Of a stretch of 17,712 nucleotides of DNA, positions 1,872 to 16,688 are shown piece by piece (within the stretch, counting starts at the first letter, position 1; each line of letters begins with the position of its first letter). The position numbers and the translations under genes were made by a program. The notes below the pieces were generated by a model. The model searched no databases and was not told the DNA's origin. It saw only the letters and a list, made by a program, of their open reading frames with translations. The DNA comes from a virus (Duplodnaviria > Heunggongvirae > Uroviricota > Caudoviricetes): positions 1 through 17,712 of the IMG/VR virus record IMGVR_UViG_2537561977_000021. One strand, written 5' to 3'.

Positions 1872-2027
1872 TTACTCCTCAGGTTCGTAAGCTGTGAAGA
1901 CAGCGACCTCCGTCTGGCCGGTTCGGATTCGTACCTCGCAGAGGTCTTTCCTCGTTACCAGTGCCGTCACTATGACGGTTAAACAGATGACGATAAGGGC
2001 GATTAACATCGCCTTTTGCTGCTTCAT
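1872..2027 (-). CDS. hokD: Hok-family type I toxin HokD (RelF), 51 aa
   Basis: MKQQKAMLIALIVICLTVIVTALVTRKDLCEVRIRTGQTEVAVFTAYEPEE matches HokD as recalled. An in-frame upstream ATG at 2084 gives a mok-like leader ORF. The leader resembles the plasmid R1 hok mRNA leader (GGUGCUUGAGGC..., AGCCUCUUAC...CAAGGAGAAG). Confidence 0.9.
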   Translation of the reverse strand: MKQQKAMLIALIVICLTVIVTALVTRKDLCEVRIRTGQTEVAVFTAYEPEE

Positions 2028-2076
2028 AGCCTGCTTCTCCTTGCCTTTCGGCACGTAAGAGGCTAACCTACATGTG

Positions 2077-2161
2077 TTCAGCATGGATTGAGCCTCAGAT
2101 TAATGTTAAGCGTCTTGCAGGACGCGTAATGTTAACTGGGGCTTTTCTCTATCTGCCTTTT
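2077..2161 (+). ncRNA. putative Sok-like antisense RNA of the hokD locus
   Basis: Plus-strand promoter-like TTGCCT (2041-2046), 17-bp spacer, TAACCT (2064-2069). The transcript would be antisense to the mok start (2082-2084) and end near the T-run at 2158-2161. Placement is by analogy with hok/sok of R1; ends are approximate. Confidence 0.3.
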
Positions 2162-2203
2162 GGTGTTCATGCCTGAGACAGATAGCCTCAAGCACCCGCA
2201 GTC

Positions 2204-2231: not shown

Positions 2232-2340
2232 ACCGTTTTTGTCCGGCACAGTAAATATCCAACTAAACCAATAGCGTGAGGTAGCCTGAGTTTAACGGAC
2301 ACTCCTTCCTGAAATAGAATGGCATCAGAAGGAGCTAATA

Positions 2341-2643
2341 ATGAGCAGAAAAACCCAACGTTACTCTAAAGAGTTCAAAGCCGAAGCTGTCAGAACGGTT
2401 CTTGAAAATCAACTTTCGATCAGTGAAGGCGCTTCCCGATTATCCCTTCCTGAAGGCACTTTAGGACAATGGGTTACCGCCGCCAGAAAAGGGCTCGGTA
2501 CTCCTGGTTCCCGCACGGTGGCTGAACTGGAATCTGAAATTCTGCAACTGCGTAAGGCGTTAAATGAAGCTCGCCTTGAGCGAGATATATTAAAAAAAGC
2601 AACAGCGTATTTTGCACAGGAGTCGCTGAAAAATACGCGTTAA
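2341..2643 (+). CDS. IS3-family (IS600) transposase OrfA, HTH DNA-binding
   Basis: 100-aa ORF MSRKTQRYSKEFKAEAV... with a leucine-zipper-like C-terminus. Slippery site A AAA AAA G at 2592-2599 near its 3' end. Confidence 0.85.
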   Translation: MSRKTQRYSKEFKAEAVRTVLENQLSISEGASRLSLPEGTLGQWVTAARKGLGTPGSRTVAELESEILQLRKALNEARLERDILKKATAYFAQESLKNTR

Positions 2644-2678
2644 TCGAACAATGGCGACAACAATTTCCCATTGAAGCG

Positions 2679-3497
2679 ATGTGTCAGGTATTTGGTGTAT
2701 CCAGGAGCGGTTATTACAACTGGGTACAGCATGAACCCTCAGACAGAAAACAAAGTGATGAGCGGCTAAAACTGGAGATTAAGGTGGCACATATCCGCAC
2801 TCGCGAAACATATGGAACCCGGCGGCTCCAGACGGAGCTGGCAGAGAATGGCATCATCGTTGGTCGTGACCGACTGGCACGTCTTCGTAAGGAGCTAAGG
2901 CTACGCTGTAAGCAGAAACGCAAGTTCAGAGCGACTACGAACTCGAACCACAATCTGCCAGTTGCGCCAAATCTGCTGAACCAGACGTTCGCTCCTACAG
3001 CACCAAATCAGGTCTGGGTGGCGGACCTGACGTATGTTGCCACACAGGAGGGATGGTTGTACCTCGCTGGCATCAAAGATGTTTATACGTGCGAAATTGT
3101 CGGCTACGCCATGGGAGAGCGCATGACAAAAGAGCTGACAGGTAAAGCCCTGTTTATGGCGCTCAGGAGCCAGCGCCCACCTGCCGGGCTAATCCACCAC
3201 TCTGATCGAGGTTCACAGTACTGCGCATACGATTACCGGGTCATACAGGAGCAGTTTGGTCTGAAAACATCAATGTCGCGTAAAGGTAACTGTTACGACA
3301 ACGCTCCGATGGAAAGCTTCTGGGGAACGCTGAAAAATGAGAGCCTGAGCCACTATCGTTTTAATAACCGGGATGAAGCCATCTCAGTAATACGGGAATA
3401 CATTGAGATTTTCTACAATCGTCAGCGTCGTCACTCTCGTCTGGGGAATATCTCCCCGGCAGCCTTCAGGGAAAAATATCATCAGATGGCTGCTTAA
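2679..3497 (+). CDS. IS3-family (IS600) transposase OrfB, DDE catalytic domain; made as an OrfAB fusion by -1 frameshift
   Basis: 272 aa from the first ATG. The frame is open upstream to the slippery site (reads ...KYALIEQWRQQFPIEAMCQVFGVSRSGYY). DDE integrase-core motifs present (WVADLTY, HSDRGSQY, YDNAPMESFWGTLK). Confidence 0.85.
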   Translation: MCQVFGVSRSGYYNWVQHEPSDRKQSDERLKLEIKVAHIRTRETYGTRRLQTELAENGIIVGRDRLARLRKELRLRCKQKRKFRATTNSNHNLPVAPNLLNQTFAPTAPNQVWVADLTYVATQEGWLYLAGIKDVYTCEIVGYAMGERMTKELTGKALFMALRSQRPPAGLIHHSDRGSQYCAYDYRVIQEQFGLKTSMSRKGNCYDNAPMESFWGTLKNESLSHYRFNNRDEAISVIREYIEIFYNRQRRHSRLGNISPAAFREKYHQMAA

Positions 3498-3553
3498 AAA
3501 AAGAACAAATGGTAGTGTCCGCTATTGCCAGTACACCTCAGCGTTCGCTGTAT

Positions 3554-3733
3554 TTACCGCCAGTATTCAATGCACATGACCGCCATGAACACCCCTAAAA
3601 AAAGGGCATTTATATGTCCAAACATTAATATCAAAACATCAATTTTTTCCATATACCTTGCTGTGAAGATGATGGGCATACATGATGCGAACAACCAGAA
3701 CGCAACAAACAAAAACTGCAATGCGTTTTTCAT
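3554..3733 (-). CDS. small hydrophobic protein (59 aa, about two predicted TM helices), hypothetical
   Basis: ATG at 3733 is preceded by GTAGGGGGAATA (strong SD, about 4-nt spacing). Product MKNALQFLFVAFWLFASCMPIIFTARYMEKIDVLILMFGHINALFLGVFMAVMCIEYWR. AT-rich context; stop is 14 bp from the IS600 right end. Confidence 0.35.
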   Translation of the reverse strand: MKNALQFLFVAFWLFASCMPIIFTARYMEKIDVLILMFGHINALFLGVFMAVMCIEYWR

Positions 3734-3945
3734 TATTCCCCCTACAATCAATGTGCAATAACATTTAAACACACCTCAATTTGGCCGGACATATAAATAT
3801 CTAAACCAGAAAAAATCACTTACATAGCGTTACAAACTCTTTAGTCTAAATACTCATCGTAAAACATTCCCCATACTTATCAGTCCGTTCCGCGCCAGGT
3901 AGCTTATTGCCTTATCTGGCAACCTATAATCAGGTTTCCGCTTTT

Positions 3946-4368
3946 TCAGTTGGCTGGTCGTTTAACCGACATAGTTAACCCATTAATCTGGTTGCCGGAT
4001 GCTGGTGGATTTTCGCGTTTTAGTTGTTCATAAAAGTGCACAGCTTTAACCAGTTCTTCTGATGTAACCGGGACTGGTGGGGCAGTGAATAAGGCCTGAA
4101 TTTCATAGTTCGGCCTGTCGTTACAATCCTCTTTTTTCGGTACATATTTCCAGTCACCAACCCACAACTCCCCCTGAGAGTCCATAACACCTTTTTTCAC
4201 GTAGCGATATCGCCACGCTATCGGCTCTGCTTCCAGCGATGCCCGTGCAATTTTGAATAACTCGCCCTCTACTCGCGCCATCCCTGAATTGGGGTGGCAT
4301 TTCGTAATCGCTATTTTTAATTTGGCTTCTTCGATTAATTGTTCTTTTGTTAATTCAGTCATTTTCAT
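3946..4368 (-). CDS. hypothetical prophage protein (nin-region), 140 aa
   Basis: ORF with ATG at 4368 or 4362. Position and N-terminal charged helix suggest an Ead/Ea22-like protein, unconfirmed. A hairpin CCGCC-CTTTCA-GGCGG lies just upstream. Confidence 0.55.
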   Translation of the reverse strand: MKMTELTKEQLIEEAKLKIAITKCHPNSGMARVEGELFKIARASLEAEPIAWRYRYVKKGVMDSQGELWVGDWKYVPKKEDCNDRPNYEIQALFTAPPVPVTSEELVKAVHFYEQLKRENPPASGNQINGLTMSVKRPAN

Positions 4369-5664: not shown

Positions 5665-6606
5665 TTACCCCCTGAAGCCCGGCGGAATTTCGTTATCCGG
5701 TTCAGAAATATGATTCACACAACGCTGGTTGTTCGTGCCGCTTACCGGGAGCAACCAGGGGTTCTCAAAATTCCGGTCCGGTCCAAAAAACGTCGTCGCT
5801 CGCTGAACAAATTCCGTTCCCGTTTTCCCGGTAGCCGCCAGGTATCTTGCGTAACGCCTCACGCCATCCAGCATGGCCTCTGGTGGCACCCCCTCGCGTA
5901 ATCTGGCCTTCCAGGCACTGAAAGCGGATTTCTTCGGGTTTGCCCCGGCACGCAACGGGTACTCCCGCCAGACCTGTTCGAACACATCCGGATAATCCAC
6001 TCGTCCCACAGACTGCCCGGTTTTTTCCGGGACTACCCGATCGGCTTCCCGCTGAATGGCGGAATCGGCTTCAGGCTGCTGCAGTTGGTGTGATTGCTCC
6101 GGCCTTGCGGTCATCACCTGCTGCACAGCGCCCGAATCGGCTTTCAGCGCATACGCTGAATCGGCTTCCGGTGTCGTGCCTGCTGGCTGACCAGGATTGA
6201 CGGTCTGAACATCCCCTGCCTGGTTCGTGGCGATTTTTTCGCCATGAACCATAGTGTTTTTGTCCTGTTCCTGTTCTTTCTCCTGTTCCTGTTCTTGGCT
6301 TCGAAGCCCCTTTAAAGCCCCTTCGAAGCCCCTTACCGTATTTCGGTTGTTATTTCGCCTTACATCCAGATGAAAATCCGTCTTATATCTGTCATAAAAC
6401 GCTGAAAGAAAAGCGTTTTCAGGTAATGACGCATATTCACTCCTGACACCTGCACAACGGTTATCGCCAGGCTTTAACTTTCCCCCAACCTGCCAGGCTG
6501 CCATTTCATGGACCCAGACCATCTCGGAATCATGGTCATAACTGCAAAAACCCACTTCGACAGCCCTTCGAAGCCCCTTCCGGACCAAGCCCGGTTTCAT
6601 GAGCAA
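5665..6606 (-). CDS. phage replication protein, C-terminal portion (phage conserved C-terminal domain, Phg_2220_C-like)
   Basis: 313-aa ORF. C-terminus DVFEQVWREYPLRAGANPKKSAFSAWKARL...YARYLAATGKTG...FFGPDRNFENPW matches the conserved replication-protein C-terminal domain as recalled. Contains an EQEQEKEQEQ linker and the iterons. Frame differs from the N-terminal piece. Confidence 0.6.
   Translation of the reverse strand: MLMKPGLVRKGLRRAVEVGFCSYDHDSEMVWVHEMAAWQVGGKLKPGDNRCAGVRSEYASLPENAFLSAFYDRYKTDFHLDVRRNNNRNTVRGFEGALKGLRSQEQEQEKEQEQDKNTMVHGEKIATNQAGDVQTVNPGQPAGTTPEADSAYALKADSGAVQQVMTARPEQSHQLQQPEADSAIQREADRVVPEKTGQSVGRVDYPDVFEQVWREYPLRAGANPKKSAFSAWKARLREGVPPEAMLDGVRRYARYLAATGKTGTEFVQRATTFFGPDRNFENPWLLPVSGTNNQRCVNHISEPDNEIPPGFRG
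6299..6333. repeat. three tandem 11-bp iteron-like repeats (TTCGAAGCCCC / TTTAAAGCCCC / TTCGAAGCCCC) inside the replication gene
   Basis: Direct tandem repeats read directly from the sequence. A second cluster (TTCGACAGCCC, TTCGAAGCCCC) lies at 6556-6577. Confidence 0.7.
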
Positions 6607-6763: not shown

Positions 6764-6984
6764 GTCCACCTCATCTGGTGCCGAACCTTCCTCCGGATAT
6801 AATCTGTGATTCCCCAATCAACAGAACCAGAGGAGGTTCGACATGTCTTTTTTGAAAAGCCTTTATCGGGCTCATATATTAAAAGTTGCAGCAACAAATC
6901 ACTGGCAAGAAGGAACAGATGAAATGTTGCCGGATTACCGGGCATGGCTGCGCGCCGAAACATACCTTCGTCTCGATATGCTGA

Positions 6985-9403: not shown

Positions 9404-9582
9404 GTTTCAGGCGTCAACCCACCCCGCCCCACAGAATGCAGGGCAATACTTCGAGTTACCAGACAGTGGTCAGGGGTTAAGTAGCCAGCCCGAGGCGTAA
9501 GAACATGACGGCAGGGTTCAACTTTAACTATGCAGCAGGTTTTTGTTCCGCTCCCCCGGCGTTAAGGGGAAATGAGGTCAGC

Positions 9583-9735
9583 ATGGATACTATCAATCTT
9601 GGCAACAGCGAATCTCTGGTATGTGGCGTGTTTCCCAACCAGGACGGTACGTTCACCGCGATGACGTATACCAAAAGCAAAACGTTTAAAACCGAAGCTG
9701 GCGCGCGTCGCTGGTTATCCAGAAATACTGACTGA
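9583..9735 (+). CDS. small early protein (51 aa), YdfA-like by size and position
   Basis: ATG at 9583 with GAGG 5 nt upstream; product MDTINLGNSESLVCGVFPNQDGTFTAMTYTKSKTFKTEAGARRWLSRNTD. The ORF also extends to an upstream ATG at 9505 (alternative start). Confidence 0.45.
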   Translation: MDTINLGNSESLVCGVFPNQDGTFTAMTYTKSKTFKTEAGARRWLSRNTD

Positions 9736-10799: not shown

Positions 10800-11025
10800 A
10801 TGATTTCCTTGGATCGTTGGGGATATCCAGATTATACAGATTTCTTGTCGTTGGGGAATGACAGGAACCACCTCGCCTGACGTGGTTAAAAGCAGGCACA
10901 CAACACGAAAGCGCACGGCGAAGTCATTTCTCCCTCTGTTGCGTGTCGCCGGTATCTTCGACCGTGCGCTTCCGGTTGTGGCACTCCGCGAAATGGCGCG
11001 GCGGTAAGTATGGCGGGGTTATCCT

Positions 11026-12319
11026 CTGAGGGATCCCCAGAAAATTTAGTAAACCATTATCATATTGGTATACCGTTGCTGTAGAACTTTCAGCCCTGCG
11101 TCAAGTGACAGTGTGTTTAGTATGAGTGGAGAATGTCGAATCACATTCTCCGCCAGTTTTAATAACGAGATGACTCGCCTGTGCTTCACTGTATTTGCCT
11201 GATATTTATGATGTATCCCTTTGTTTTCCAGGCTGAAACCGCTTAACCACATAATGATACTGGCTAATGTTGCGATCAGACTCAATACCGTGACCCGCCC
11301 GGATGAATGACTGGCACCAAACCGTAGTCCAAATCCCCAGCGAGGATTTTTTTCATCCCTGAAATTTTGCTCAATTTGCATTCTACGGCTGTATAATTTC
11401 ATTACCTGTTTTGGCGAGAACTCAGTACTGTTTGTGAAAATAAACCATGGTGATTTCCCGGCAGTACGAGCTTTAGCCGTCACCGATGGTCTGGTTGCTC
11501 TTTCCTTCGAGCGTTTAAATCTACGACCTTTAGGCTTACTTTTATAAAGATAAAAATGCCCTTCATGTTGTGCATTTTTATCTCGACCCAGCAGGCCTTC
11601 ACCTAAATAAATTGCTGTCGTTGATGCTTTTGTGCCTGAGTCCGACACCTTTTCCCAGCCATTACCAACATTGTAATAATGATTGCCCAGTACCCGGCAA
11701 ATATAGGTCCAGCCACGGGAGCGGAGCTGTTGGAACCATCGCCCCTGAAAACCGGCATCTGTAATAACAATGACATCAGTCCCGGGGGAAAAGCACTCAG
11801 CAAGCGATTCCAGAAAACGCTCATGTACATCTGCATTCGCTGTCTGTGATGATGGAACGACACAACTCATCAACGGTAAAGAACGCCCGTCACATGCCAG
11901 GCTTGCCCGCAAAAGCTGAAAACGAGAGGCATGATAAGCACTCTAGTCAATGAGTATCACAACACGAGACATTCCCCGCGTAATCTTTTGGGTAATTCGC
12001 TGAAAAATGGTGGAAACCTCATTTTGCAAATGTCGATTCCCCAACAGTCGATCCACCCGCTTTATTTTGTTTTTAACTGATGCCGTACCGGTTAAATGAC
12101 GCCCGATACTGGTAAGTGTGAGGGAAGCGCCATTTATTACAGCATTAGTTGCGTCAATCAGTGATTTTTGACGGTAAAGATGCAAAGGGGCCAGTATGTT
12201 GTTAAGGAAATTTTGGCATAATGAACGTGCAGGCATAGTGGTGATCTCCTTGAAATTGTTAGCACAATCAATTAGATCACATCTCACTATGCCTGTCTTG
12301 TTTTCTGGGGATTCCTCAG
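11026..12319 (-). mobile_element. IS10-like insertion sequence (IS4 family), about 1294 bp, transposase inactivated
   Basis: Terminal inverted repeats CTGAGGGATCCCCAGAAAA (left) and TTTTCTGGGGATTCCTCAG (right). Flanking direct repeat GGGTTATCCT (11016-11025 and 12320-12329), consistent with a 9-bp target duplication; boundaries uncertain by 1 bp. Confidence 0.8.
11046..12236 (-). pseudogene. IS10-like transposase interrupted by an in-frame amber (TAG) codon
   Basis: The ORFs 11943-12347 and 11046-11912 are in the same frame, separated by TAG at 11945-11943. N-terminal motif KNKIKRVDRLLGNRHL and the C-terminal part align with IS10 transposase as recalled; the TAG sits where IS10 has Trp (TGG). 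Likely start is ATG at 12236 (MPARSL...). Confidence 0.75.
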
Positions 12320-12407
12320 GGGTTATCCTTACCCCCACAGGTAGCACCGGGTTGTCAGGTTGACCATACGCCCGAGTGACAACCCCGCCACAACATCTCC
12401 ATGTTGA

Positions 12408-12466
12408 GGCTTGTGTGAGACCTTTGGCGGCATCAGTTTAATTGCTGGCTGATGTCCGCCCTTTTT
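12408..12466 (+). ncRNA. dicF: DicF-like small RNA with intrinsic terminator
   Basis: ...TTGTGTGAGACCTTTGGCGGCATCAGTTTAATTGCTGGCTGATGTCCGCCCTTTTT resembles E. coli DicF (recalled as UUUCUGGUGACGUUUGGCGGUAUCAGUUUUACUCCGUGACUGCUCUGCCGCCC). Hairpin GGCGGCATCAG/CTGATGTCCGCC plus T5. dicB and ydfD follow downstream as in Qin. 5' end approximate; 5' region diverges. Confidence 0.55.
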
Positions 12467-12467
12467 A

Positions 12468-12637
12468 AAGTGAATTTTGTGATGCGGTGAATGCGGCTAA
12501 GCGCACGCGGAACAGTTAAAAAAGTGATAGGCACTCCGTATTTGTTTTATGGAGTTGGTTTCCCTGTATTCCGGCGTTAATTGTTAACTGGTTAACGTCA
12601 CCTGGAGGCACCAGGCACCGCATCACAAAATTCACTT
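12468..12637. repeat. pair of 22-bp inverted repeats (AAGTGAATTTTGTGATGCGGTG) flanking about 126 bp
   Basis: Plus 12468-12489 matches the reverse complement of 12616-12637 (21-22 of 22 positions). Internal palindromes CCTGG-AGGCA-CCAGG and CATCACA...TGTGATG. Lies immediately downstream of the DicF-like terminator. Confidence 0.6.
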
Positions 12638-12766
12638 CTGTGATGAAAGGTGAGAGAAAATGTTGAATGTAGCTATTGAAAACCAGAACGGGTGGAATTA
12701 TAGTGCACCTGCACCTCATAAAACGGGTGCCGGGATTGGCCTCCTGTTAATCACATTGGTGCCTGA

Positions 12767-12791
12767 ACACGCACCAAAAGCGTGTTTTTTG
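12767..12791 (+). terminator. Rho-independent terminator (ACACGC-ACCAAAA-GCGTGT + T6)
   Basis: Hairpin plus TTTTTT read directly. It lies inside the long ORF-track frame 12660-13508, arguing that Rha starts downstream. Confidence 0.55.
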
Positions 12792-12950
12792 TTGCCTGCA
12801 TTTCATCATTCAATGGCAGCTCAGGCGGGAGCTTCTCACGAAGCGCCGGGTTCCGATGTGACCGGTAAGGCCAATCCCGTCTGGGCTACCACCAATCGGA
12901 TTGGCCTCTGCGGTGGTGGCAGTACTGCTTTCACATCGGAGGATGCCGTT

Positions 12951-13508
12951 ATGGCTACTATCACTACCCTTTCTCACCCTTGTGTAACCATCGAAAATGG
13001 TCGCGCTGTCACCACATCTGTCGCCATTGCGGAATTCTTCCGCAAAATGCATAAAGACGTTCTGAAAAAAATAGACAACCTAGAATGCTCTGAGAAATTT
13101 AGCGGGCGCAATTTTGCGCCCGCCGAATATCTTGATGAGCAAGGCAAAAAACGCCCAATGTACCAGATCACCAAAAACGGCTTCGTTTTCCTGGTGATGG
13201 GATTCACTGGCAAAAAAGCCGCTGCATTTAAAGAAGCCTACATTGCTGAGTTCGATCGCATGGAGGCCGAACTGCGCCAGAATAACACCCCACCCACTGA
13301 CAAAATAATTCCAGGCGATGGCCGCACCCTGGTTGTTCACTTCGACGAACGCGGCAACATCAGATTCACCGAAACCGTTCCTGATGGCGCACGGGTCTGT
13401 ACCATGGAGACTTTCCGGTTTTATCTGGAAGAACAGGGATGGACTCTTGTTAACCGAGGCGCAATTAAAAATATGACTGTAGAGCAATTACTCAAAATTC
13501 ATTGTTGA
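12951..13508 (+). CDS. Rha-family phage regulatory protein (Phage_pRha domain)
   Basis: ATG at 12951 with GGAGGA 7 nt upstream. Motifs VTTSVAIAEFFRKMHKDVLKKIDNL...YQITKNGFVFLVMGFTGKKAAAFKEAYIAEFDRMEAEL match the Rha family as recalled. The ORF-track start at 12660 is rejected in favour of this one. Confidence 0.7.
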   Translation: MATITTLSHPCVTIENGRAVTTSVAIAEFFRKMHKDVLKKIDNLECSEKFSGRNFAPAEYLDEQGKKRPMYQITKNGFVFLVMGFTGKKAAAFKEAYIAEFDRMEAELRQNNTPPTDKIIPGDGRTLVVHFDERGNIRFTETVPDGARVCTMETFRFYLEEQGWTLVNRGAIKNMTVEQLLKIHC

Positions 13509-13518
13509 GGACGCGATA

Positions 13519-13707
13519 ATGGAAACGTTATTACCAAACGTTAATACGTCTGAAGGTTGTTTTGAAATTGGTGTCACTATCAGTAACACGGTATTTACTG
13601 AAGATGCCATTAACAAGAGAAAACACGAACGGGAGTCATTAAATAAAATATGCATTGTTTCAATGCTGGCTCGTTTGCGTCTGATGCAAAAAGGATGCTG
13701 GCGATGA
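13519..13707 (+). CDS. dicB: cell-division inhibitor DicB (62 aa)
   Basis: METLLPNVNTSEGCFEIGVTISNTVFTEDAINKRKHERESLNKICIVSMLARLRLMQKGCWR is near-identical to E. coli DicB as recalled. GAGGA 8 nt upstream. Lies downstream of the DicF-like RNA as in Qin. Confidence 0.8.
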   Translation: METLLPNVNTSEGCFEIGVTISNTVFTEDAINKRKHERESLNKICIVSMLARLRLMQKGCWR

Positions 13708-13892
13708 ATACAGCATTTGCACTTATTCTGACGGTTTTTCTTGTTTCCGGAGAGCCAGTTGATATTGCAGTCAGTGTTCACAGAACAATGCAGGAATGTA
13801 TGGCCGCAGCAACCGAACAGAAAATTCCAGGCAACTGTTATCCGGTCGATAAAGTTATTCACCAGGATAACGAAATCCCGGCAGGATTTTAA
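13704..13892 (+). CDS. ydfD: YdfD-like small protein with N-terminal hydrophobic segment (Qin prophage lysis-associated protein)
   Basis: MNTAFALILTVFLVSGEPVDIAVSVHRTMQECMAAATEQKIPGNCYPVDKVIHQDNEIPAGF matches YdfD as recalled. AAGGA 9 nt upstream. Overlaps the dicB stop (ATGA). Confidence 0.7.
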   Translation: MNTAFALILTVFLVSGEPVDIAVSVHRTMQECMAAATEQKIPGNCYPVDKVIHQDNEIPAGF

Positions 13893-14125
13893 AACAGCAC
13901 CGTAATAAATATCCAGTTTCATTCTTATATGTCAGCAATGGCAGAGATTTGTTCACCCTTAAATCTGTGATGAGGTTTATCAATAATGAGCACTGATAAA
14001 GAAGAATTTGCACTATATTGCGAAGCAAAAAATGACAAAGTAAGAAAACGCCTGGGAATTAAAGGTGTTTTTACTGGACTACAGCAAAAAAATTATCTGT
14101 TGCAATCTCCCGCTGCATTACCGCA

Positions 14126-16426
14126 ATGGATGACAACGATTATGATGAAGACGACTTTAAAAAACCCGTCCGCGTCAATTTGCCCGTTGTTGACGACCTT
14201 CCGCCAGAAGGCGTGTTTGATACTGAATTCTGCAACCGCTATGAAAAAGGCGGGAAAGATGGCATCACAATGACATTTATCGGCCCTTCCCCCTCTGTTC
14301 AGGACAAACCAGCCAGCACTGACAATACCAACATCAACGGCGAAGACATGACTGAGATTGAGGAGAGCATGCTTCTGCCTGTCTCCGGTCAGGAACTGCC
14401 CATTCGTTGGCTTGCTCAACACGGCAGCGAAAAACCAGTAACGCACGTTTCACGCGACGAACTCCAGGCATTACACATTGCACGGGCTGAAGAACTACCG
14501 GCTGTTACTGCCCTGGCTATTTCGCATAAAACCAGTCTGCTCGACTCGCTGGAGATTCGCGACCTCCACAAACTGGTTCGTGACACTGACAAAGTTTTCC
14601 CTAATCCTGGTAATTCAGACCTGGGACTAATAACTGCTTTTTTCGAAGCATACCTAGACGCTGACTACACTGATCGGGGTCTGCTGACAAAAGAGTGGAT
14701 GAAAGGAAATCGTGTTTCACGCATCACCCGCACGGCTTCCGGTGCTAATGCTGGTGGTGGGAACAAAACCGATCGCAATCCGAATTTAGTACACACCCTC
14801 GACACACTGGATGTGGAGATTGCAGCAGCCACACTTCCGATGGATTTTAATATTTATGAAATTCCGGGCAGCGTTTATCGTCGCGCAAAAGAAGTAGTCC
14901 TGAAAAAAGAAAGTCCGTTCAAAGAATGGTCCGCAGCACTTCGTGCAACCCCGGGTATTCTGGACTATTCCCGCGCCGCTATTTTTGCACTTATCCGAAG
15001 CGCACACCCTGAATTTTATCACTACCCGGGACGCCTTCAGGGGTATATCAACGCCTATTTGACGGAAACTGATCACGAGAACCCCAGCAAGGAAACTCTC
15101 ACAGCTGCCCGGCATACGCCGGAAAAAGATATCCTGGAAGAAATTAACCGCGAGGTGGTTACTGAGCGTGAAACAGAAGAAGAAAAACCACAACCATCTG
15201 ACGCAATGGCAGGTGAACAGGCAACAACTGAAACAATGGAACCGGATACAACTGAACATTGCCAGAACGCGCAGTCGCTGGATGCTCAGTCGCAGGTGAG
15301 TTCCGCTAACCAAGTAAAAGTCACCGCTGACGAAGTAAACAAAATTATGCAGGCAGCCAATATCAGCCAGCCTGACGCCGATAAGTTACTTGCTGTATCG
15401 CGTGGTGAATTTGTTGAGGGGATTAGCGACCCTAATGATCCGAAATGGGTCAAGGGGATCCAGACTCGCGATTCTGTGAACCAGAACCAGCATGAATCGG
15501 AACGGAACGACCAAAAAGCGGAACAAAACAGCCCAAATGCGTTACAAAACGAGCCAGAAACGAAACAATCCGAACCAGTAGCGCAACAGGAACCGGAAAA
15601 AGTCTGCACCGCCTGCGGTCAGAGCGGTGGCGGCAACTGCCCTGATTGTGGCGCGGTGATGGGCGACGCAACATACCAGGAAACATTCGATGAAGAGAAT
15701 CAGGTTGAAGTTCAGGAAAATGATCCGGAAGAAATGGAAGGCGCTGAACATCCACACAAGGAGAACCCTGGCGGCAATCAGCATCACGCCAGCGATAATA
15801 AAACTGGCGAGGCGACAGATCCCTTAATTAAGGTGAATGGTCATCATAAGCTCACATCCACCAGCAGAGCGGGGATTCATCTGATGATCGACCTTGAAAC
15901 CATGGGAAAAAATCCCGATGCCCCGATTATCTCAATAGGCGCAATATTTTTCGATCCACAAACCGGAGATATGGGACCGGAATTTAGCAAGACCATCGAT
16001 CTGGATACTGCTGGCGGAGTCATTGATCGTGACGTCATTAAATGGTGGCTGAAGCAATCACGTGAAGCGCAGTCTGCCATTATGACCGATGAAATCCCGT
16101 TAGATGATGCACTACTGCAATTGCGGGAATTTATCGACGAAAACTCCGGTGAATTTTTTGTTCAGGTCTGGGGTAATGGGGCCAACTTCGACAACGTGAT
16201 TTTACGCCGTTCATACGAACGACAGGGTATCCCCTGCCCGTGGCGCTACTGCAACGATCGCGATGTACGCACAATCGTTGAGCTGGGGAAAGCCATAGAC
16301 TTCGATGCCAGAACTGCTATCCCATTCGAAGGTGAGCGCCATAATGCACTTGATGACGCTCGTTACCAGGCAAAATACGTTTCAGCTATCTGGCAAAAAC
16401 TGATCCCGAGTCAGGCTGATTTTTAA
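14126..16426 (+). CDS. large prophage exonuclease: acidic N-terminal region, central Cys-rich zinc-ribbon-like motif, C-terminal DEDDh (DnaQ-like) 3'-5' exonuclease domain
   Basis: 766-aa ORF. C-terminal motifs IDLETMG (Exo I), WGNGANFD (Exo II), HNALDDARYQAKY (Exo III, DEDDh); CTACGQSGGGNCPDCG in the middle. The true N-terminus may lie in the overlapping -1 frame ORF 13986-14273, which has GAGG 10 nt upstream. Confidence 0.75.
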   Translation: MDDNDYDEDDFKKPVRVNLPVVDDLPPEGVFDTEFCNRYEKGGKDGITMTFIGPSPSVQDKPASTDNTNINGEDMTEIEESMLLPVSGQELPIRWLAQHGSEKPVTHVSRDELQALHIARAEELPAVTALAISHKTSLLDSLEIRDLHKLVRDTDKVFPNPGNSDLGLITAFFEAYLDADYTDRGLLTKEWMKGNRVSRITRTASGANAGGGNKTDRNPNLVHTLDTLDVEIAAATLPMDFNIYEIPGSVYRRAKEVVLKKESPFKEWSAALRATPGILDYSRAAIFALIRSAHPEFYHYPGRLQGYINAYLTETDHENPSKETLTAARHTPEKDILEEINREVVTERETEEEKPQPSDAMAGEQATTETMEPDTTEHCQNAQSLDAQSQVSSANQVKVTADEVNKIMQAANISQPDADKLLAVSRGEFVEGISDPNDPKWVKGIQTRDSVNQNQHESERNDQKAEQNSPNALQNEPETKQSEPVAQQEPEKVCTACGQSGGGNCPDCGAVMGDATYQETFDEENQVEVQENDPEEMEGAEHPHKENPGGNQHHASDNKTGEATDPLIKVNGHHKLTSTSRAGIHLMIDLETMGKNPDAPIISIGAIFFDPQTGDMGPEFSKTIDLDTAGGVIDRDVIKWWLKQSREAQSAIMTDEIPLDDALLQLREFIDENSGEFFVQVWGNGANFDNVILRRSYERQGIPCPWRYCNDRDVRTIVELGKAIDFDARTAIPFEGERHNALDDARYQAKYVSAIWQKLIPSQADF

Positions 16427-16441
16427 TGTTCAACCCTAATT

Positions 16442-16467
16442 GCCGCTAACCGTATATAGTTAGCGGC
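16442..16467. promoter_or_regulatory. perfect 9-bp-stem inverted repeat (GCCGCTAAC-N8-GTTAGCGGC) upstream of xis-int
   Basis: Read directly; no adjacent T-tract on either strand, so more likely a protein-binding or regulatory site than a terminator. Confidence 0.4.
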
Positions 16468-16484
16468 GGTTATGAGATATAGCT

Positions 16485-16688
16485 ATGAGCAGCTTATTTT
16501 TAACCGAAGATGAATTGCTAATATTAACGGGCTGCAAATATGCAAGCCACCAGCGAAAATGGTTAATGGAAAACGGGCTTCCGTTCTATACCAATCGTAG
16601 TGGCAAACCGATTGTCAGCCGGGATCTATTTACCTGCAATAAAACTTTACCACCACGCGAGGTAGAGCCGAATTTTGGTGCGATCTGA
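16485..16688 (+). CDS. excisionase-like protein (DUF4224-like) upstream of integrase
   Basis: 67 aa starting MSSLFLTEDELLILTGCKYASHQRKWLMENGLPFYTNRSGKPIV..., typical of DUF4224 excisionase-like proteins as recalled. Stop overlaps the int start (TGATG). Confidence 0.65.
   Translation: MSSLFLTEDELLILTGCKYASHQRKWLMENGLPFYTNRSGKPIVSRDLFTCNKTLPPREVEPNFGAI

Follow-up and report, generated by a model that had tools for sequence, protein, structure and literature searches.

In genome annotation, the textbook prophage sRNA DicF is handled as a single entity. It is characterised as a stable, Hfq-bound RNA of about 53 nt that arises through RNase E processing and termination. In the Qin prophage it belongs to the dicBF operon, which is arranged ydfABC-dicF-dicB-ydfDE. 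The 5′ end of K-12 DicF pairs with xylR and the ftsZ message is paired by the 3′ region; a mutation of the 5′ end, DicF3, also abolishes pykA regulation, and a 72-nt RNase III product of the DicF transcript has been reported (PMC5069750). A second system that bears on the locus described here is isrK-orf45-anrP of Salmonella Gifsy-1, which is related to P1 c4-icd-ant and to the P4 CI immunity RNAs (PMC4825925).

The window, by which we mean the whole 17,712-nt stretch of viral DNA that was analysed, contains what appears to be the dicF-dicB-ydfD part of an early-left operon, belonging to a lambdoid prophage of the Qin/Rac-like kind from E. coli or Shigella. An earlier note on this DNA had proposed a Qin-type dicF-dicB-ydfD cassette, and this is borne out by profile matches to DicB and DUF1482 on the same strand. 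The features of the region are the following.

11025–12319, minus strand: ISEc60 (IS4 family) insertion; the copy annotated in FDAARGOS_944 matches it with 99.7% identity over 1300 nt.
12348–12408, plus strand: two upstream hairpins, from an alignment of 84 distinct loci and the minimum-free-energy fold.
12411–12466, plus strand: element at the dicF position, allele "type B", from its Rfam DicF score, fold, a terminator scan and identical copies elsewhere.
12468–12637, plus strand: long inverted-repeat element, whose perfect 22-bp stem surrounds three small hairpins.
12635–13492, plus strand: inserted module of about 859 bp, from BLAST break points against three loci and junction sequences.
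12660–13508, plus strand: 282-aa open reading frame (Rha), with Pfam Phage_pRha and Phage_ASH matches.
12676–12704, plus strand: sigma-70 promoter-like site TTGAAA-17-TATAGT, matching 10 of 12 consensus positions (a match only, not function).
12711–12790, plus strand: isrK-family RNA, RF01394 at 62.6 bits (above the gathering score of 50), E = 1.4e-11.
12809–12896, plus strand: C4/CI-type antisense RNA, RF01695 at 71.3 bits (above the gathering score of 45), E = 1.9e-12.
13519–13707, plus strand: dicB, cell-division inhibitor, Pfam DicB PF05358 at 127.2 bits (above the cut-off of 27), E = 1.9e-37.
13704–13892, plus strand: ydfD (DUF1482), PF07358 at 85.6 bits (above the cut-off of 25), E = 2.1e-24.
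13986–16426, plus strand: recE-like exonuclease VIII gene, frameshifted, with Pfam Exonuc_VIII and Rv2179c-like matches.

The two proteins downstream of the dicF site are close to their K-12 counterparts: DicB is identical at 56 of 62 residues (90%) and YdfD at 58 of 63 (92%), with the true start of ydfD at 13704, where it overlaps the dicB stop codon (ATGA, 13704–13707). The frameshift in the recE-like gene results from a 1-nt deletion near 14067 (2441 nt against 2442 nt in the intact gene; the gap falls at query position 82); an intact gene of 813 aa is found in loci L214–L216. The arrangement had been set apart from the compact one of K-12; it is not unusual, as 23 complete E. coli genomes carry at least 80% of 12300–13900 in one piece. 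Three draft assemblies carry the arrangement of 12300–13900 at 99.8–99.98% identity without the IS, and the locus is intact in E. coli 1303 and in the assemblies GCA_013946285.1 and GCA_017180195.1.

The dicF-site element itself has a 5′ part with 15 nt of single strand (UUGUGUGAGACCUUU), then a hairpin of 13 bp, and U5 after it. The hairpin arms are GGCGGCATCAG (12426–12436) and CTGATGTCCGCC (12449–12460), followed by a C and by T5 at 12462–12466. The RNA of the element folds with −21.0 kcal/mol (z = −3.6), and none of 200 shuffles was equally stable; a consensus scan also finds it terminator-like, which is a consensus match and not proof of function. The predicted fold and the U5 tract are those of a Rho-independent terminator, the 3′ end typical of DicF. 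Homology to DicF is supported by a full-length match to the Rfam DicF model (RF00039) at 12412–12461, with 45.4 bits and E = 7.4e-9 in a scan of 451 nt; the gathering score of this model is 48 bits, so the gathering-threshold Rfam scan did not report the element. It is further supported by the surroundings: 12319–12634, including the flanks on both sides, aligns to the K-12 dicF locus (L001, 3292–3592) at 80%, and the flanks are also homologous in E. coli 1303 and FDAARGOS_944. E. coli 1303 has a 96-nt stretch of the site with 100% identity, and the element recurs unchanged in other genomes too. The DicF-like hairpin with U5 that the earlier note had pointed out is therefore present and homologous to the K-12 dicF locus.

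The position of the element is likewise that of dicF, in an early-left operon upstream of dicB and between a conserved upstream hairpin and an RNase III-type stem. Of the two upstream hairpins, CCGGGTTGTCA...TGACAACCCCG comes first and CAACAT-CTCC-ATGTTG second; in the type A and type B loci that were inspected, at least the first lies ahead of the hairpin at the dicF position. The minimum-free-energy fold of 12321–12660 has a z of −6.6. The arms of the downstream stem (12468–12489 and 12616–12637) are 22 nt long and 100% complementary, and across the loci of the 84-locus alignment the left arm plus about 55 nt hardly varies. The frame of the dicF site, that is, the upstream hairpin and the downstream RNase III stem, is near-invariant structured RNA. 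In the K-12 fold, nt 72 of the DicF transcript falls within the left arm of the long stem, and the 22-bp stem is a probable RNase III processing stem. The inverted repeat had been described as an addition to the K-12 arrangement; it is present, but it is not extra, since the element is homologous to the K-12 dicF-dicB spacer and K-12 has the same stem between dicF and dicB, for which reason we also rejected the idea of a mobile element. The inverted-repeat element matches the middle of the model for the Salmonella sRNA STnc100 (RF02076; partial match to model positions 21–154) at 34.9 bits, below the gathering score of 47; because the K-12 spacer is likewise below threshold (34.4 bits), we regard it as a related structured spacer and not as a member of STnc100.

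Comparison with K-12 DicF reveals a mosaic of conserved and replaced parts. The two share the operon site, the upstream hairpin, the downstream RNase III-type stem, the total length, the UUUGGCGG linker and stem base, CCGCCC, the U5 tail, and dicB and ydfD downstream. By region, 13 of 14 positions are identical in the linker and 5′ arm and 11 of 11 in the stem base and tail. The earlier note had seen that the 5′ part differs, with TTGTGTGAGACC in place of K-12 TTTCTGGTGACG, and this is correct, as 6 of the 12 positions are identical. The divergence, however, is not restricted to the 5′ part as supposed there: the loop and 3′ arm also differ (12 of 21 positions identical), and the CUCC anti-Shine-Dalgarno of K-12 DicF is absent from the window element. 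The window hairpin is almost perfect, and its stability exceeds that of the K-12 hairpin by 5 kcal/mol (−21.0 vs −15.9). The Rfam DicF score drops as the K-12 3′ part is lost, from 76.7 bits in K-12 through 60.6 in a Salmonella variant with a K-12-like 3′ part and 45.4 in the window to 34.1 in a type B element with a short spacer and no hit for type C.

To relate these differences to known targets, we used a windowed, accessibility-corrected pairing score. It replaced RNAduplex-style folding, in which the complete sRNA was set against leaders of 120 nt, a procedure that gave artefactual long duplexes and no discrimination. As a control, the score recovered the K-12 sites, namely ftsZ −28 to −7 by way of DicF nt 32–53 and xylR +11 to +20 by way of nt 6–15. 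For the window allele it yielded weak duplexes only and no K-12-like pairing to ftsZ, xylR, pykA or manX. The hybridisation energy with ftsZ is −7.3 kcal/mol, compared with −22.7 kcal/mol for K-12 DicF, and the best predicted duplex lies outside the ribosome binding site, with a total energy equalled by 42% of shuffles; this is suggestive and no proof of loss, because the pairing model is weak for ftsZ, the total energy of the genuine K-12 DicF-ftsZ pairing (−7.1) being equalled by 13% of shuffled leaders. Total energies for the window and K-12 alleles are +0.5 and −11.8 kcal/mol with xylR, −7.5 and −12.8 with pykA, and −5.5 and −10.0 with manX. The window allele is thus predicted to have neither the 3′-region complementarity to the ftsZ ribosome binding site nor the 5′-end complementarity to xylR, with its associated regulation of pykA and manX, that characterise DicF. 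The divergence of the 5′ part, which had been suggested to affect pairing with ftsZ, does not by itself bear on ftsZ, since that message is paired by the 3′ region. The first six bases of the window element (UUGUGU) can pair with GCACAA at ftsZ −20 to −15, adjoining the Shine-Dalgarno sequence, a match of the size expected by chance.

The window element is not an isolated oddity. The dicF-site hairpins of 179 loci comprise 18 distinct sequences that fall into three classes, A, B and C, each of 11–14 bp and −13.7 to −21.0 kcal/mol with a U5 tract, and all followed by the same AAAGTGAATTTTGTGATG; classes B and C differ in that the upper stem is swapped for another complementary pair of arms. The dicF site carries at least three discrete hairpin alleles in complete E. 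coli genomes, where type A (the K-12 type) occurs in 4010, type B in 139 and type C in 157 of 5426 genomes, and by its sequence the window element is the minority allele type B. A scan for the DicF pattern in one genome per species returned E. coli and Salmonella, plus chance matches in unrelated metagenome-assembled genomes. In our tests, types B and C score below the Rfam DicF threshold and lack the ftsZ-pairing sequence. The single-stranded spacer before the hairpin is 7–16 nt long in type B and 7–9 nt in most loci, and blastn alignments with the window element mostly start at its nt 12–13; a spacer that is variable and mostly short speaks against conservation of a 5′ seed. Of the type B elements, the window allele has the longest 5′ single strand (about 15–16 nt, the length in K-12 DicF), and it alone within type B keeps a single strand of DicF length.

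Taken together, the locus is probably an ordinary prophage cassette with a type B dicF-site allele that lacks the K-12 pairing to ftsZ and xylR and most likely serves as a terminator, with division inhibition exerted through DicB. The element would descend from the dicF locus as an alternative allele that keeps the parts needed to form a 3′ end (the GGCGG/CCGCC stem base, the GC-rich hairpin, U5 and the upstream U-rich linker) and appears to have lost the K-12 regulatory sequences for ftsZ, in the loop and 3′ arm, and for xylR, at the 5′ end. Its likeliest role would be that of an intrinsic terminator or 3′-end former within the operon, and RNase III would cleave read-through transcripts within the conserved 22-bp stem directly 3′ of it. 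A stable RNA of ~55 nt, if it accumulates, would not be an ftsZ antisense in the manner of K-12, and inhibition of division by the cassette would rest on DicB. On a rival reading, which takes up the altered target pairing suggested in the earlier note, the element would be an orthologue that works as DicF does and blocks translation of ftsZ through another pairing register. The shared locus and flanks, the full-length Rfam match at 45.4 bits, the conserved linker, stem base and U5, dicB co-located as in K-12, and the possible 6-bp 5′ match to ftsZ all fit this idea, but the nucleotides that pair with ftsZ in K-12 (nt 32–53, with CUCC opposite the Shine-Dalgarno sequence) are replaced, the 3′ arm is locked in the stabler hairpin, the best ftsZ duplex is weak, off the ribosome binding site and no better than many shuffles, and the Rfam score stays under the gathering score; we consider it very improbable. 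That a generic GC-rich terminator merely resembles DicF has practically no chance of being right. Generic terminators share a GC stem and a U tract, the Rfam score is sub-gathering, and the DicF pattern did match unrelated metagenome-assembled genomes by chance; synteny with the K-12 dicF locus refutes this explanation, with ~300 nt of homologous flanks, dicB and ydfD next to the element and the E value given above.

The window element could itself be an active sRNA, because the 5′ strand of K-12 length is kept, as are the U-rich linker, the hairpin and U5 on which an Hfq-dependent sRNA would rely. It is conceivable, if unlikely, that its seed was swapped and that, as an Hfq-type sRNA, it has a new regulon, the dicF site being a cassette of differing sRNAs (types A, B and C). 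Three discrete allele classes within a near-invariant structured context are consistent with such exchange, as are the 15-nt unstructured 5′ part, U-rich linker, terminator and U5 of the window allele. Moreover, 5′ parts at the dicF site do get exchanged, since the Salmonella variant joins a K-12-like 3′ part to yet another 5′ part. Against this, most type B and all type C spacers are only 7–9 nt long, too short for a 5′ seed, and there is no conservation beyond the hairpin. A search of the window for cis targets returned no complementarity of at least 12 nt, only chance matches of 10–11 nt beyond the trivial self-antisense, and a full-text literature search for type B sequence strings found no support, although the type may have been described among dicF homologues in 1994. 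The wider proposal that the dicF site of Qin/Rac-like prophages is a swap-in slot for terminator-embedded sRNAs, with the window allele an active Hfq-dependent sRNA having a regulon other than that of K-12, is decidedly unlikely.

The prophage is degenerate here, with two IS elements and the frameshifted recE. ISEc60, which the earlier note did not contain, is flanked by a target duplication GGG(G)TTATCC of 9–10 bp (11016–11024 and 12320–12328) and has 28-nt terminal inverted repeats (11017–11044 and 12301–12328); its transposase frame is broken into split open reading frames (11046–11912 and 11943–12347), and the empty site is present in E. coli 1303. It lies between the cassette and the upstream ydfA-like genes and early-left promoter, with its right end about 86–91 nt upstream of the dicF-site element. 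The possibility that the insertion created the divergent 5′ end of the element was rejected, as loci free of the IS have the identical sequence.

Between the stem and dicB lies the module of about 859 bp, which K-12, E. coli 1303 and FDAARGOS_944 all lack and which is bounded by a 9-nt microhomology, AAAATTCAY. An extra Rha gene had been noticed between the sRNA and dicB and is indeed there, but as part of this module, whose isrK, C4-type RNA and promoter-like site had been overlooked; the module is also the only real insertion relative to K-12 between stem and dicB. The end of the promoter-like site is 6 nt away from the 5′ end of isrK, which has its own terminator-like site (12765–12787, plus a T run). 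In the Salmonella isrK locus, the counterpart of the C4-type RNA is the orf45/STnc1160 region (PMC4825925). The Rha domain is encoded at 12951–13508 (PF09669 at 106.6 bits, above the cut-off of 29.9; E about 1e-30 to 2.4e-30), and the N-terminal Ash match of the 282-aa frame (Phage_ASH, 1.9e-12) overlies the isrK and C4 RNA genes. CFSAN029787 has this 282-aa CDS in its annotation, and an identical protein is found in three NCBI assemblies; by sequence, the rha gene product is a predicted anrP-like antirepressor. A consensus scan found no terminator-like site between the isrK terminator and dicB. ISEc60 detaches the cassette from the early-left promoter, and the isrK promoter-like site is the only one left upstream of dicB, so that dicB-ydfD may be expressed by read-through from the isrK-C4-rha module.

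Since types B and C lack the ftsZ-pairing sequence, the presence of a dicF-dicB-like cassette alone does not imply DicF-type control of ftsZ, and strain comparisons of filamentation or of DicF regulons should check the allele type. Beyond this caveat, the locus is a standard mosaic early-left prophage region decayed by IS elements.

The module matches Gifsy-1 isrK-orf45-anrP (PMC4825925) in its order, first an isrK RNA with promoter-like site and terminator, then a C4/CI-type RNA, then the gene for a Rha-type antirepressor, and it differs in lying inside an early-left operon directly upstream of dicB. As in the S. dysenteriae orf45-anrP fusion, the 282-aa frame starts ahead of isrK and continues uninterrupted to the end of rha. 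Relative to the Qin dicBF operon, the window differs in the ISEc60 upstream of the dicF site, the module between stem and dicB, and upstream genes that are of the E. coli 1303 type and not ydfB/ydfC. In gene order it follows Qin, with a ydfA-like gene first, then the dicF site and its inverted-repeat stem, and after these dicB, ydfD and an exonuclease gene like recE/ydfE; it is a variant of a well-known E. coli cassette.

The element at 12411-12466 carries, on direct reading of 12400-13892, the hairpin arms GGCGGCATCAG (12426-12436) and CTGATGTCCGCC (12449-12460), followed by a C and a run of five T residues (12462-12466). Folded as RNA, it shows 15 unpaired nucleotides, then a 13-bp hairpin and a U tract, with an energy of -21.0 kcal/mol (z = -3.6; equalled by 0 of 200 shuffles), and a consensus scan also scored it as terminator-like. 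When 12250-12700 was searched with an E-value threshold, the full Rfam DicF model (RF00039) matched 12412-12461 with 45.4 bits (E = 7.4e-9), just below the gathering score of 48; at gathering thresholds, the whole window yields only three matches, to sok, isrK and C4. The downstream genes, which the earlier note had called dicB and ydfD homologues, encode proteins identical to those of K-12 at 56/62 (DicB) and 58/63 (YdfD) positions, and the true ydfD start codon overlaps the dicB stop codon. The features read by eye (hairpin with U tract, DicF-like match, dicB and ydfD downstream, 22-nt inverted repeat) are all borne out, and this is the already known dicF-dicB-ydfD cassette.

Features of the window
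2022-2197, minus strand: sok (Rfam gathering threshold, 118.9 bits)
2278-3539: IS3-family element, a 1262-bp insertion relative to genome FDAARGOS_944
11025-12319, minus strand: ISEc60, with 28-nt terminal inverted repeats and a 9-10-bp target duplication
12676-12704, plus strand: promoter-like site TTGAAA-17-TATAGT, its end 6 nt ahead of isrK (consensus scan)
12711-12790, plus strand: isrK (Rfam gathering threshold)
12809-12896, plus strand: C4 (Rfam gathering threshold)
ending at 13508, plus strand: Rha ORF (Pfam Rha, 1e-30)
13519-13707, plus strand: dicB (Pfam DicB, 1.9e-37)
from ATG 13704, plus strand: ydfD (Pfam DUF1482/YdfD, 2.1e-24)
14126-16426, plus strand: exonuclease VIII and Rv2179c-like domain (Pfam)

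Alignment to K-12 holds on both flanks of the element, upstream through AGTGACAACCCCGC...CAAC and downstream through TTTTTAAAGTGAATTTTGTGATG; BLAST aligned 12319-12634 and 13493-13977 with positions 3292-3592 (80%) and 3584-4071 (93%) of the K-12 dicF locus (L001). A chance terminator was rejected as a reading of the element on account of this two-sided homology.

A pattern scan of IMG/VR and a further scan that used the non-K-12 upstream hairpin as its anchor together yielded about 190 loci. The hairpin is followed by AAAGTGAATTTTGTGATG in 179 of them, and the 18 distinct hairpins of these loci form three classes: type A, which is K-12 DicF (GGCGGUAUCAG-UUUUACUCCGUGA-CUGCUCUGCCGCC); type B, the window allele (GGCGGCAUCAG...CUGAUGUCCGCC); and type C (GGCGGGUAUC...GAUACCCGCC), carried by CFSAN029787, which among complete genomes with the Rha module is the closest. 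All classes form hairpins of 11-14 bp (-13.7 to -21.0 kcal/mol) followed by U5, types B and C differing by a swap of the upper stem for another self-complementary arm pair; the conserved feature at the dicF site is the terminator-shaped hairpin. When 55-57-nt queries were run against 5426 complete E. coli genomes, 4010 genomes matched type A (at 6947 places), 139 matched type B (at 176 places) and 157 matched type C. Type B is thus an undescribed yet not rare allele at an sRNA position; a full-text literature search found no paper containing its sequence, though Faubladier & Bouché 1994 may already describe such dicF-like sequences.

Rfam DicF scores drop with divergence, from 76.7 bits for K-12 through 60.6 for a Salmonella variant to 45.4 for the window; one short-spacer type B sequence scores 34.1, and type C gave no match to the model. 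The Salmonella enterica homologue (CP191473.1, locus L140, 3644-3695, minus strand) keeps the K-12-like ftsZ-pairing 3' part (UUUUACUCCAUGGCUGCUCUGCC) and differs in its 5' part (UGAGAGUUGGG); the two ends of DicF thus evolve as independent modules. No dicB was found within 3.5 kb downstream of this homologue, where a recE-like gene lies. Separately, the DicF pattern TTTGGCGGNATCAG...CCGCCCTTT gave a 34-nt match in eight unrelated metagenome-assembled genomes of Verrucomicrobiota/Chthoniobacterales (L129, L132, L138, L141, L143, L145, L147 and L148); recurring beyond chance expectation, the match may mark a conserved element native to those genomes.

In an Rfam-guided alignment, the window allele is identical to K-12 DicF at 6/12 positions of the 5' single strand, 13/14 of the U-rich linker and 5' arm, 12/21 of the loop and 3' arm, and 11/11 of the stem base and U tail. 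The 5' divergence in the earlier note is therefore real, but its proposed link to ftsZ pairing does not hold: DicF base-pairs with the ftsZ ribosome binding site through its 3' region and with xylR through its 5' end (Balasubramanian et al. 2016, PMC5069750), and the 5'-end mutant DicF3 also loses pykA regulation (PMC5069750). For ftsZ the relevant change would be that in the 3' part, which is altered as well.

Interaction scores, combining windowed duplex energies with opening energies, recovered for K-12 DicF the ftsZ site at -28 to -7, paired through nt 32-53 with a hybridisation energy of -22.7 kcal/mol, and the xylR site at +11 to +20, paired through nt 6-15 (total -11.8), together with strong predicted duplexes with pykA and manX. 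The best predicted ftsZ duplex of the window allele reaches only -7.3 in hybridisation and -4.2 in total, away from the ribosome binding site; its best totals are +0.5 for xylR, -7.5 for pykA and -5.5 for manX. Among 60 shuffled ftsZ leaders, 13% equalled the total energy for K-12 DicF and 42% that for the window allele; because 13% equal even the K-12 total, the energies would support lost ftsZ control without being decisive. The window allele lacks the CUCC anti-Shine-Dalgarno sequence, and its 3' arm is sequestered in a hairpin 5 kcal/mol more stable than that of K-12.

The most likely role of the type B element would be intrinsic termination, with an RNase III stem just downstream. K-12-style ftsZ repression by the window allele is predicted to be lost, which would leave DicB as the division inhibitor of the cassette. 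That the allele is instead an active sRNA with other targets seems unlikely. Its 16-nt spacer GGCTTGTGTGAGACCT, the longest type B version, does have partial homology to the K-12 5' end; across type B, however, the spacer between the small hairpin (...CATGTTGA) and the terminator varies from 7 to 16 nt, mostly 7-9 nt, and most blastn matches begin at nt 12-13 of the element, so that the class has no conserved 5' seed.

As to the stem of this terminator-and-stem arrangement, the perfect 22-nt inverted repeat (12468-12489/12616-12637) had been taken as unlike K-12, which in fact carries this long stem too, in its dicF-dicB spacer (TGAATTTTGTGATGTGGTG/CACTGCATCACAAAATTCA). Nucleotide 72 of the K-12 DicF transcript falls inside its left arm, consistent with the 72-nt DicF species that RNase III is reported to produce (PMC5069750). 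From the left arm through the following ~55 nt there is hardly any variation among the loci, whatever their type, and both K-12 (34.4 bits) and the window (34.9 bits) give a sub-threshold STnc100 match. The region 12321-12660 is strongly structured (z = -6.6). Upstream of the dicF-site hairpin (12348-12408 of the window; 5920-5975 of the E. coli 1303 locus, L003) stand a strongly conserved hairpin, CCGGGTTGTCA...TGACAACCCCG, and the small hairpin CAACAT-CTCC-ATGTTG; ISEc60 targeted yet another hairpin, GGCGGGGTTATCCTTACCCCC. These flanking hairpins are better conserved than the DicF element, and Rfam gave no match to them.

The E. coli 1303 prophage is 100% identical over 12380-12475 (96 nt), with dicB 170 nt downstream. 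Because the NCBI drafts GCA_013946285.1, GCA_017180195.1 and GCA_018229165.1 match 12319-16507 at 99.8-99.98% and encode an identical Rha protein, and two of the three are IS-free upstream, the window is a decayed copy of a previously sequenced prophage. In 23 complete E. coli genomes, at least 80% of 12300-13900 occurs in one place; several common mosaics exist, this arrangement among them. The right end of ISEc60 is 91 nt upstream of the element, and the insertion splits a conserved hairpin. This copy is 1 nt longer than the annotated one in FDAARGOS_944, its transposase is split into two ORFs (11046-12237, minus strand), and it is probably inactive. A consensus scan found no plus-strand promoter-like site between ISEc60 and the element, which is probably detached from the early-left promoter beyond the ydfA-like gene (9505-9735). 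The recE-like gene (13986-16426) has lost 1 nt near 14067 (GGTGG to GGTG) relative to intact 2442-nt copies, giving ORFs 13986-14273 and 14126-16426. The IS3-family element, whose transposase ORF (2679-3497) has rve and HTH_21 domains, adjoins the hok/sok locus. Two IS elements in 17.7 kb suggest a Shigella-like or IS-rich host.

The extra Rha gene noted before dicB is present and has no K-12 counterpart, but it is part of a larger insertion of ~859 bases (12635-13492) that K-12, E. coli 1303 and FDAARGOS_944 all lack and that contains the promoter-like site, isrK with its terminator, a C4/CI-type RNA and the Rha gene. A 9-nt microhomology, AAAATTCAY, flanks it (12628-12636 and 13490-13498) and is single in K-12 (L001 3584-3592), which suggests that the module was gained or lost by recombination at this short repeat. 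In IMG/VR, types A and B both occur with and without the module, and with and without dicB. A reading frame of 282 aa is open from 12660 to 13508, across isrK and C4 into rha, and in CFSAN029787 this CDS is annotated by PGAP as a single 'Rha family' protein. A Pfam 'Ash protein family' match (1.9e-12; 12660-12975) coincides exactly with the isrK and C4 RNA genes called by Rfam, reflecting either a fusion of the orf45-anrP type described for S. dysenteriae (PMC4825925) or a protein family partly built on translated RNA genes. The module has the same architecture as isrK-orf45-anrP of Salmonella Gifsy-1, a locus in which IsrK RNA switches on AnrP antirepressor translation (PMC4825925).
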